A stretch of DNA of 64,000 nucleotides, taken from assembly GCF_041886205.1 (NCBI RefSeq), contig NZ_CP169029.1. One strand, given 5' to 3'. Of this stretch, positions 45,794-58,685 are shown in pieces. The DNA is from Escherichia coli (GTDB lineage: Bacteria > Pseudomonadota > Gammaproteobacteria > Enterobacterales > Enterobacteriaceae). The position numbers and the translations under genes are program-made. Under the pieces are notes generated by a model. That model was not told the DNA's origin. It searched no databases and saw only the letters and a list, made by a program, of their open reading frames with translations. How positions within the stretch are numbered: position 1 is the stretch's first letter; each line of letters opens with the position of its first letter.

Positions 45794-46144
45794 TCACTCC
45801 TGGTCTATTTCTATCCGCCGAATCTGTAAACCGTCGTCTGCCACAATCTGTAGCATGTCACCATGACACTGTGGACAGCGGCGGACGCGCTGGGTCAGTA
45901 GCGTCACATACTGTTGGCATGTTTCACACCAGCATTCGGCCTCTTGTTCTTCGAGGTGCAGTTTACAACCTTCCGCCACGCTGCCGCGGCAAACCAGATC
46001 AAAACAAAAGGCAAGAGAGCTGGTTTCGACACAAGAAAATGCGCCAATTTTGAGCCAGACCCCAGTTACGCGTTTTGCGCCGTGTTTTGCGGCCTGCTGT
46101 TCGATCAATTCCAGTGCCCGTTGGCAGAGGGTTATTTCGTGCAT
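45794..46144 (-). CDS. hypA: Hydrogenase nickel-insertion protein HypA
   Basis: Start at internal Met (MHEITLCQRALELIEQQ...), 116 aa; zinc-binding CxxC...CxxC. Confidence 0.93.
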   Translation of the reverse strand: MHEITLCQRALELIEQQAAKHGAKRVTGVWLKIGAFSCVETSSLAFCFDLVCRGSVAEGCKLHLEEQEAECWCETCQQYVTLLTQRVRRCPQCHGDMLQIVADDGLQIRRIEIDQE

Positions 46145-46174
46145 ATCGCCTCCCATTAACTATTGCCAGCTACA

Positions 46175-46191
46175 AGCAATAATTGTGCCAG
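46175..46191 (-). promoter_or_regulatory. Sigma-54 (-24/-12) promoter candidate for the hyp operon
   Basis: Minus strand reads cTGGCACaattaTTGCT, matching the TGGCAC-N5-TTGC consensus; correct orientation and distance for hypA. Confidence 0.65.
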
Positions 46192-46224
46192 TGTTGATTA
46201 TCTCTGCGGTGAATAATGTCGATG

Positions 46225-46262
46225 ATGTCGAAATGACACGTCGACACGGCGACGAAATTCAT
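46225..46262. promoter_or_regulatory. Candidate FhlA upstream activating sequence (hypA-hycA intergenic)
   Basis: atgtcgaaatgacacgtcgacacggcgacgaaattcat: TGTCGAAATGACA-type half-sites in inverted arrangement; the same motif recurs at 46877..46923. Confidence 0.5.
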
Positions 46263-46303
46263 CTTTAGCTTAAAAATCTCTTTAATAACAATAAATTAAA
46301 AGT

Positions 46304-46319
46304 TGGCACAAAAAATGCT
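46304..46319 (+). promoter_or_regulatory. Sigma-54 (-24/-12) promoter candidate for the hyc operon
   Basis: TGGCACaaaaaaTGCT, ~35 bp upstream of the hycA ATG; matches GG-N10-GC spacing. Confidence 0.65.
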
Positions 46320-46355
46320 TAAAGCTGGCATCTCTGTTAAACGGGTAACCTGACA

Positions 46356-46817
46356 ATGACTATTTGGGAAATAAGCGAGAAAGCCGATTACATCGCACAG
46401 CGGCATCGTCGCCTACAGGACCAGTGGCACATCTACTGCAATTCGCTGGTTCAGGGGATCACGTTATCGAAAGCGCGCCTGCATCACGCCATGAGCTGCG
46501 CGCCGGACAAAGAACTCTGTTTCGTCCTTTTTGAACATTTTCGTATTTACGTCACCCTGGCGGATGGCTTTAACAGCCACACCATCGAGTATTACGTCGA
46601 AACAAAAGATGGCGAAGACAAACAGCGGATTGCGCAGGCGCAACTGAGCATTGACGGCATGATTGATGGCAAGGTCAACATCCGCGATCGCGAACAGGTT
46701 CTGGAACACTATCTCGAAAAAATCGCTGGCGTTTACGACAGCTTATACACCGCTATTGAAAACAATGTGCCGGTGAATTTAAGCCAACTGGTAAAGGGAC
46801 AAAGCCCGGCAGCATGA
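46356..46817 (+). CDS. hycA: Formate hydrogenlyase regulatory protein HycA
   Basis: 153-aa ORF MTIWEISEKADYIAQRHRRLQDQWHIYCNSL...; first gene of the hyc operon. Confidence 0.93.
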   Translation: MTIWEISEKADYIAQRHRRLQDQWHIYCNSLVQGITLSKARLHHAMSCAPDKELCFVLFEHFRIYVTLADGFNSHTIEYYVETKDGEDKQRIAQAQLSIDGMIDGKVNIRDREQVLEHYLEKIAGVYDSLYTAIENNVPVNLSQLVKGQSPAA

Positions 46818-46876
46818 GCTGAGGCTTTGCCCGTTTTGCAGGCGTTACGCCTGTCTGGGGATGGGCGTGTCGATGA

Positions 46877-46923
46877 GTGTCGAAAATGACATTTCATCGG
46901 CATGTTTTCGTCAAAAATGACAA
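46877..46923. promoter_or_regulatory. Candidate FhlA-binding repeat motif in hycA-hycB spacer
   Basis: gtgtcgaaaatgacatttcatcggcatgttttcgtcaaaaatgacaa: two copies of (C)GAAAATGACA-type motif similar to that at 46225..46262. Confidence 0.5.
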
Positions 46924-57526: not shown

Positions 57527-58537
57527 ATGACGACGATGCTGGAAGTGGCGAAGCGCGCCGGGGTTTCAAAAGCGACCGTTTCCCGCGTGCTTTCAGGTAA
57601 TGGCTACGTCAGCCAGGAGACTAAAGATCGCGTGTTTCAGGCGGTAGAAGAGAGCGGTTACCGCCCAAACTTGCTGGCGCGTAATCTGTCGGCGAAGAGT
57701 ACTCAGACGCTGGGGCTGGTAGTGACCAACACGCTTTACCACGGCATTTATTTTAGTGAATTACTGTTTCATGCCGCGCGAATGGCGGAAGAGAAAGGGC
57801 GGCAGTTGCTATTGGCAGATGGTAAACACAGCGCCGAAGAAGAGCGCCAGGCGATTCAGTATCTGCTGGATCTGCGCTGCGACGCGATCATGATTTATCC
57901 GCGCTTTTTAAGCGTGGATGAAATTGATGACATCATTGACGCGCACAGTCAGCCGATAATGGTGCTTAATCGCCGCCTGCGCAAAAATAGCAGCCATAGC
58001 GTCTGGTGCGATCATAAACAGACCAGCTTTAACGCCGTGGCAGAGTTGATAAACGCCGGGCATCAGGAGATTGCTTTCCTTACCGGCTCGATGGATTCCC
58101 CCACCAGCATTGAACGTCTTGCCGGGTATAAAGACGCGCTGTCGCAGCATGGTATTGCGCTCAATGAAAAACTTATCGCTAACGGTAAATGGACGCCCGC
58201 CAGCGGGGCCGAAGGGGTAGAAACGTTGCTCGAACGTGGGGCTAAATTTAGCGCGTTAGTTGCCAGTAACGACGATATGGCGATAGGTGCGATGAAAGCG
58301 TTGCACGAGCGCGGCGTAGCGGTGCCAGAGCAGGTGTCAGTTATCGGATTCGATGATATCGCAATTGCCCCCTATATCGTTCCGGCGCTCTCCAGCGTAA
58401 AAATTCCGGTGACTGAGATGATTCAGGAAATTATTGGACGGCTGATTTTTATGCTCGATGGCGGGGATTTCTCACCGCCGAAAACCTTCAGCGGAAAACT
58501 GATCCGCCGCGACTCACTCATTGCTCTTTCGCGATAA
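57527..58537 (+). CDS. ascG: LacI-family repressor of the asc operon
   Basis: Start chosen at MTTMLEVAKRAGVSKATVSRVLSG... (336 aa); in-frame ATGs at 57518 and 57524 are alternative starts; LacI HTH and periplasmic-binding-like fold; reading frame intact. Confidence 0.93.
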   Translation: MTTMLEVAKRAGVSKATVSRVLSGNGYVSQETKDRVFQAVEESGYRPNLLARNLSAKSTQTLGLVVTNTLYHGIYFSELLFHAARMAEEKGRQLLLADGKHSAEEERQAIQYLLDLRCDAIMIYPRFLSVDEIDDIIDAHSQPIMVLNRRLRKNSSHSVWCDHKQTSFNAVAELINAGHQEIAFLTGSMDSPTSIERLAGYKDALSQHGIALNEKLIANGKWTPASGAEGVETLLERGAKFSALVASNDDMAIGAMKALHERGVAVPEQVSVIGFDDIAIAPYIVPALSSVKIPVTEMIQEIIGRLIFMLDGGDFSPPKTFSGKLIRRDSLIALSR

Positions 58538-58550
58538 ACATTGTCATCAC

Positions 58551-58587
58551 ATGTCATCGTCACTAGTGTCGATGACATCGTTTTTCC
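58551..58587 (+). terminator. Rho-independent terminator downstream of ascG
   Basis: atgtcatcg-tcactagtgt-cgatgacat hairpin followed by cgtttttcc. Confidence 0.7.
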
Positions 58588-58685
58588 TGCATTACAGAAA
58601 TTAATTTCCTTAAATAACAGCAAATTAAAAACTGGCATGATTTGTGAATGTATCGGCGCATTAACTGTCATTGCTGGAGAATTTG

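Follow-up and report, generated by a model that had tools for sequence, protein, structure and literature searches.

The region examined here is the 211-bp spacer between hypA and hycA (46145–46355) in a 64-kb stretch of an Escherichia coli chromosome, the whole of which is referred to below as the window. The hypA coding sequence occupies 45794–46144 on the minus strand, with its start codon at 46142–46144, and was identified from the list of open reading frames, by tblastn and from the annotation of a genome identical over a 1.2-kb query around the region. On the other side of the spacer hycA, the gene for the formate hydrogenlyase regulator, is read from the plus strand at 46356–46817 (open reading frame list and annotation). 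Several E. coli chromosomes with 100% identity to the 1.2-kb query are annotated as hypB, hypA and hycA at this position, and the query was found in 5,425 of the 5,426 complete E. coli genomes. The spacer is flanked by hypABCDE-fhlA on one side and by hycABCDEFGHI, ascBFG and hydN-hypF on the other, the fhlA gene itself lying within the window. Between 46100 and 47000 the sequence differs from that of K-12 MG1655 by three substitutions (46203, 46544 and 46855), none of which falls in a motif discussed here; the one at 46203 (T here, C in K-12) is in a part of the spacer, between the UAS and the −24 element of hyp, that is not conserved. In E. coli this locus, between hypABCDE-fhlA and hycABCDEFGHI, is known as the classical site of formate-regulon control. 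Its promoters, activator and formate logic were established in the 1990s and were later re-confirmed by genome-wide sigma-54 mapping, and none of these is new here.

Each of the two genes is preceded by a sigma-54 promoter motif. That of hyp, CTGGCACAATTATTGCT, lies on the minus strand at 46175–46191, with the −24 GG at 46188–46189 and the −12 GC at 46176–46177, and has no mismatch to TGGCACNNNNNTTGCW (TGGCAC-N5-TTGCW). That of hyc, TTGGCACAAAAAATGCT, lies on the plus strand at 46303–46319 (−24 GG at 46305–46306, −12 GC at 46317–46318), and within it TGGCACAAAAAATGCT (46304–46319, plus strand) has a single mismatch to TGGCAC-N5-TTGCW. In both motifs the GG and GC doublets are one helical turn apart. 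The original prediction had read near-consensus −24/−12 elements on both strands, and they were found where it had placed them.

A loose sigma-54 pattern with one mismatch allowed is not enriched in the window (4 matches seen, 3.6 expected), and the window was therefore scored with an RpoN weight matrix derived from 186 promoters and printed in PMC7658346. This kind of scan had been suggested as a check on the two promoters, and it singles them out: in the whole window the hyp motif, with 18.9, is the best and the hyc motif, with 15.2, the second best of ~128,000 positions, and in a regional rescan with a uniform background they score 18.6 and 14.9 and rank first and third. Random sequence of 64 kb gives on average 1.0 match of at least 15 and 0.025 matches of at least 18.5 with the same matrix.

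With the transcription start placed 12 nt beyond the C of the −12 GC, the predicted hyp start is at 46164 on the minus strand (from the C at 46176), 20 nt 5′ of the hypA ATG, and the predicted hyc start, from the same geometry, is at 46330 on the plus strand, 26 nt 5′ of the hycA ATG. These equal the distances of 20 (hypA) and 26 (hycA) given in Table 1 of Bonocora et al. 2015 (PMC4591121). There the identical 17-mers are sigma-54 ChIP-seq peaks OS28 (hypA, occupancy score 201) and OS27 (hycA, occupancy score 91), both flagged ‘C’, that is, experimentally confirmed in EcoCyc. By our own arithmetic a constant offset of 1978 bp carries both motif centres from U00096.2 to NC_000913.3 by way of the window. 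Genomic SELEX shows binding of the RpoN holoenzyme to the hypA–hycA spacer (PMC8743547). In Salmonella, ChIP-chip gave sigma-54 peaks at hycA and hypA, and the expression of hyc, hyp, hydN and fdhF depends on sigma-54, FhlA being the activator (PMC3844500). Both elements are thus true promoters, from which sigma-54 polymerase serves hypA and hycA. The 17-nt motifs, their orientation and their distances from the start codons are identical to those of the K-12 hycA and hypA promoters, with no difference of substance, and the base-level promoter positions that had been put forward for this strain therefore add nothing new.

Several other signals were seen near the promoters. The third-best sigma-54 match of the whole window, which falls between hyp and hyc in the regional ranking, is TGGCACATCTACTGCA within hycA (46425–46440, plus strand; matrix score ~15, 15.1 / 15.0). 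It encodes W-H-I-Y-C and most likely owes its existence to the coding sequence: roughly one in four of the 81 orthologous loci described below has TGT in place of TGC as the Cys codon, a synonymous change that destroys the −12 GC, and the motif is absent from the published sigma-54 ChIP-seq list (PMC4591121). We have accordingly rejected it as a conserved promoter. The two promoters are also linked by a 27-nt inverted repeat (46164–46190 and 46304–46330, 81% complementary), which runs past the −12 elements to a GCTGGCA shared near each predicted start. The GCTGGCA part is lost in E. albertii and poorly kept elsewhere, and the repeat was set aside as lineage-specific or due to chance. A scan for sigma-70 promoters and terminators gave nothing above shuffled sequences, and a search of Rfam gave only noise. 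The FNR consensus has no match within hypA or near either sigma-54 promoter, a scan that proved uninformative. The 25-nt hycA leader, ATCTCTGTTAAACGGGTAACCTGACA (46331–46355, plus strand), is conserved across genera about as well as the promoter itself, and its match to a Shine–Dalgarno sequence is weak.

Between the two promoters lies a cluster of YGTCR/YGACR units, 6 of them in 50 bp (46213–46262) against a background of 0.47, a density that no other cluster in the 64 kb reaches; the second densest is the hydN UAS. Its conserved core, ATGTCGATGATGTCGAAATGACACGTCGACA (46215–46246, to be read on either strand), was delimited from matrix score, unit density and conservation footprint, and has its centre near −99 relative to the predicted start of hyc and near −67 relative to that of hyp. 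On sequence grounds it is an FhlA-type candidate site, and physical binding of FhlA to its UAS was reportedly shown by Schlensog and colleagues in 1994. With an FhlA matrix of the TGTC-N6-GACA type, compiled from 13 characterised sites (PMC7658346 Table 2), the site at 46217–46230 scores 16.0, and matches of at least 15.5 are expected only 0.075 times per random 64 kb. The neighbouring TGTCGAAATGACA (46226–46238) is a 4+4 inverted repeat of TGTC and GACA whose halves are 5 nt apart, and in that register it does not match the matrix.

The original prediction had placed a palindromic motif at 46225–46262. The motif TGTCGAAATGACA does lie inside this span, but it is not a full palindrome, and the right-hand extension of the span, CGGCGACGAAATTCAT (46247–46262, either strand), is not conserved: it is a sequence of the E. 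coli lineage and the site of length variation between genera, with insertions or deletions of ~11 or 22 bp. We also searched with the idealised FhlA consensus CATTTCGTACGAAATG of Leonhartsberger et al. 2000, as quoted in PMC4987338, and found no match with three or fewer mismatches anywhere in the window. As it misses even the known hydN UAS, this consensus is a poor detector, and its failure is no evidence against the sites described here.

The interval that separates the UAS from the hyc −24 element contains an IHF-like site, TAACAATAAATTA (46286–46298, plus strand), which departs from WATCAANNNNTTR at one base. Kluyvera and Klebsiella oxytoca have AATCAATTAATTA at the corresponding place in the alignment, and there the consensus is matched perfectly. 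A regional scan and the alignment gave no IHF-like site on the hyp side of the central array, and the feature is thus confined to the hyc side. With the published sigma-54 peaks, an FhlA-type cluster between the promoters and fhlA itself within the window, the FhlA- and formate-dependent control of both operons, which the original prediction had cited as known, is well borne out.

A second FhlA-type cluster lies outside the hypA–hycA spacer altogether, in the 124-bp spacer between hycA and hycB. It consists of GTGTCGATGAGTGTCGAAAATGACA (46866–46891) and TTTCGTCAAAAATGACA (46906–46922), again to be read on either strand, and is found 706–756 bp upstream of the predicted hyp start and ~650 bp from the central array. 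It contains the best FhlA matrix match of the whole window, TGTCGAAAATGACA at 46878–46891, which scores 17.4 of a possible 17.5, and a further match at 46909–46922 that scores 12.1. The two arrays are related in sequence. Local pairwise alignment, used for this comparison since the internal repeats shift the register in MAFFT, shows that the 22-nt module at 46217–46238 is the same as the 24 nt at 46868–46891 save for two 1-nt insertions; the alignment scores 36, whereas none of 1,000 shuffles exceeded 23. Near the second array no sigma-54 motif scores above 8.3, save for the coding-derived one in hycA.

The window also holds the hydN-hypF control region (58529–58659), which has five YGTCR/YGACR units at −115 to −84 and an IHF-like AAATAACAGCAAATTAAAAA module resembling that of hyc; its sigma-54 promoter, CTGGCATGATTTGTGAA (58632–58648), is weak and has no −12 GC. 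Two overlapping FhlA matrix matches were found inside ascG at 57919–57941 (TGAAATTGATGACA, 13.3, and CGTCAATGATGTCA, 11.7), ~700 bp upstream of the hydN promoter, and are probably due to chance.

A scan of species-representative genomes for HycA gave 80 loci from at least 15 genera, including Escherichia, Salmonella, Citrobacter, Klebsiella, Raoultella, Enterobacter, Kluyvera, Lelliottia, Kosakonia, Pseudocitrobacter, Pseudescherichia, Superficieibacter and others; the counts given here are over 81 loci. All loci from the scan have the arrangement hypA, hycA, hycB, and both sigma-54 motifs are present in 81 of 81. The predicted hyc start is 24–27 nt before hycA throughout, and the predicted hyp start precedes the hypA ATG by 18–24 nt in 80 of the loci and by 32 nt in the remaining one. 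Within the hypA–hycA spacer the conserved stretches are the hypA ribosome-binding region, the hyp −12 and −24 elements, the core at 46215–46246, an A/T-rich IHF-like block, the hyc −24 and −12 elements and the whole of the hycA leader. In the hycA–hycB spacer the first 45 bp are unconserved, whilst GTGTCGAnnnGTGTCGAAA(A)TGACA and TTTCGTCAAAAATGAC are near-invariant and the 15-mer TTCGTCAAAAATGAC is found exactly in 78 of 81 enterobacterial loci. Conservation thus picks out the two arrays, 46215–46246 and 46866–46922, and leaves out 46247–46262 and 46815–46860. The second array is conserved more strongly than anything in the hyp–hyc spacer, the central array included.

The spacing of these elements varies between genera in discrete steps. 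The gap from one −24 element to the other (46191–46303 in the E. coli window) is 113–115 nt in most genera; the Citrobacter freundii group, Kosakonia and one Enterobacter have 101–102 nt, and the Pseudescherichia group has 91 nt. The core is always either 42–44 or 53–55 nt away from the hyp −24 element, and it is 69–70, 58–61 or 47 nt away from that of hyc. Steps of about one turn on both sides suggest that there are rotational constraints towards both promoters. The steps rest on only about five independent events, and the array is itself a repeat of ~9–10 bp in which a shift of register could mimic a one-turn step. In the second array, most genera have paired TGYCGA units (46868–46891 region) 38–39 and 28–29 nt upstream of TTCGTCAAAAATGAC; the distances in Enterobacter, Lelliottia and Huaxiibacter are 26–30 and 16–20 nt, about one helical turn less.

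The position of an array with respect to the predicted starts is informative as to which promoter it serves. Relative to the predicted start of hyc, the units of the central array span −111 to −78; at hydN and fdhF, each array taken relative to the predicted start of its own gene, the spans are −115 to −84 and −134 to −82. The layout of the central array is therefore the same as that at hydN and fdhF, which would make it primarily a hyc enhancer. From the predicted hyp start the same units span −88 to −55, ~25 bp closer than for hyc, and those of the second array span −756 to −706. An array ~100 bp upstream of the start is thus present for hyc, and the central array does not provide one for hyp.

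In the primary literature the central array is reported to activate hyc and the hycA–hycB array (46866–46922) to activate hyp (Lutz and colleagues in 1990, Schlensog and colleagues in 1994, and the 2002 review of Leonhartsberger, Korsa and Bock). Among the papers available in full text, a search found none that gives the position of the hyp UAS. On this reported assignment, the second array most likely serves as the principal enhancer of hyp, which it would reach through a long-range loop.

The picture that we favour is then as follows. Sigma-54 RNA polymerase would be held in closed complexes on PhypA (46175–46191, minus strand) and PhycA (46303–46319, plus strand). FhlA, the formate-activated enhancer-binding protein encoded at the end of the hyp operon, would bind to the arrays of TGTCG/GACA units, and its hydrolysis of ATP would open the closed complexes. 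The central array (46215–46246), ~100 bp upstream of the hyc start, would act on PhycA with the IHF-like bend site at 46286–46298 between the two, and the second array (46866–46922), ~730 bp upstream of PhypA, would reach PhypA through a long-range loop. We hold with good confidence that this is the classical formate control region, with the central array primarily the hyc enhancer and the hycA–hycB array most likely the main hyp enhancer. What was computed here is where the motifs lie, how significant and how conserved they are and how they are spaced; sigma-54 occupancy and the confirmed status of the promoters come from the papers cited, and the array assignment and the exact starts are inferred or reported in earlier work.

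The first alternative is the one that the original prediction had adopted. In it PhypA and PhycA would both be activated from a single UAS that lies between them and binds FhlA, as ZraR is reported to do between zraP and zraSR, the hycA–hycB array being irrelevant to hyp. There is indeed an FhlA-type array between the promoters, both of them strongly occupied by sigma-54, and the restricted distances from the core to the hyp −24 element and from one −24 element to the other, with their steps of about one helical turn, are what such an arrangement might be expected to show. At hyp–hyc, however, this array is neither the only one nor comparably placed on the two sides, as a single shared enhancer would be. 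It lies at −88 to −55 for hyp, whereas the arrays of the other three FhlA-dependent promoters examined centre near −100, and the IHF-like site was found on the hyc side only. The hycA–hycB array, conserved above the central one, must in addition have some function, and the footprinting and deletion literature reportedly gives that array to hyp. We therefore consider a single shared UAS to be unlikely.

A lesser role for the central array at hyp is a separate matter. The spacing on the hyp side is as expected if the array were phased to PhypA, and a contribution to hyp is for this reason possible; that it makes a real one we would put forward only tentatively, and with more doubt than belief. 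In the strongest form of this idea the central array would be held in a fixed register to both promoters, so that FhlA and the two closed complexes would form one stereospecific assembly that feeds PhypA too, which we think improbable. If it were true, hyp would have dual enhancers, the central one and the distant one between hycA and hycB, a design absent from the classical model.

The second alternative is that the hycA–hycB array is an FhlA site which does not serve hyp. It might act on PhycA from downstream, at about +540 to +590, might titrate FhlA beside the gene of its antagonist HycA, or might be concerned with the translation of hycB. The array does end ~20 nt before the hycB start, in a conserved block that reaches the hycB ribosome-binding region, and there are known cases, of which PMC3844500 mentions rocG, of an enhancer downstream of its sigma-54 promoter. 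A near-perfect FhlA matrix match and a repeat of the central module nevertheless point to the binding of a protein rather than to an RNA or translation signal, and PhycA already has a canonical upstream array and an IHF-like site. The literature, moreover, reportedly gives this array to hyp, and all three variants taken together seem to us quite unlikely. That the sigma-54 motifs themselves are chance matches with no regulatory role can be dismissed, for although the one-mismatch pattern is no more frequent in the window than expected, the two are among the three best regional matrix scores, stand in the correct orientation before both start codons, recur in every locus across genera and are occupied by sigma-54 in identical sequence (PMC4591121).

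We thus retain the assignment of the central array to hyc and of the hycA–hycB array to hyp, and it can be set against related systems. At fdhF and hydN-hypF, the other members of the formate regulon compared here, a YGTCR/YGACR array is likewise centred ~100 bp upstream of a sigma-54 promoter, and an IHF-like module, TAA(A)TAACA..AAATTAAAA, adjoins the −24 element at both hydN and hyc. The hyp–hyc region differs from both in that two divergent promoters flank one array and a second array lies 650 bp off, within the hyc operon. The zraP/zraSR region likewise has back-to-back sigma-54 promoters, ~130–160 bp apart, with activator sites between them. The ZraR sites were reportedly placed between the two promoters by Leonhartsberger and colleagues in 2001, and a single shared enhancer is the accepted model there. 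Unlike zra, hyp–hyc has a second conserved array and an asymmetrically placed central one. Both zra promoters are occupied by sigma-54 (OS38 and OS39, PMC4591121). In Salmonella Typhimurium the hycA and hypA motifs, TGGCATGGAAAATGCT and TGGCATAAATATTGCT (PMC3844500), lie at orthologous positions and within the variation of the 81-locus set, with a −24 element of TGGCAT, not TGGCAC.

As a discovery these results carry little weight, the region having long been studied, and the comparison of 81 loci with its one-turn spacing steps is a small addition to the known picture. Their use is rather as a correction for annotators and for those who engineer the region, for instance by deletion or replacement of hycA for hydrogen production: a strongly conserved FhlA-type array lies between hycA and hycB. 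Since this array is in the spacer downstream of hycA, removal of hycA together with that spacer may disturb the formate control of hyp–fhlA.
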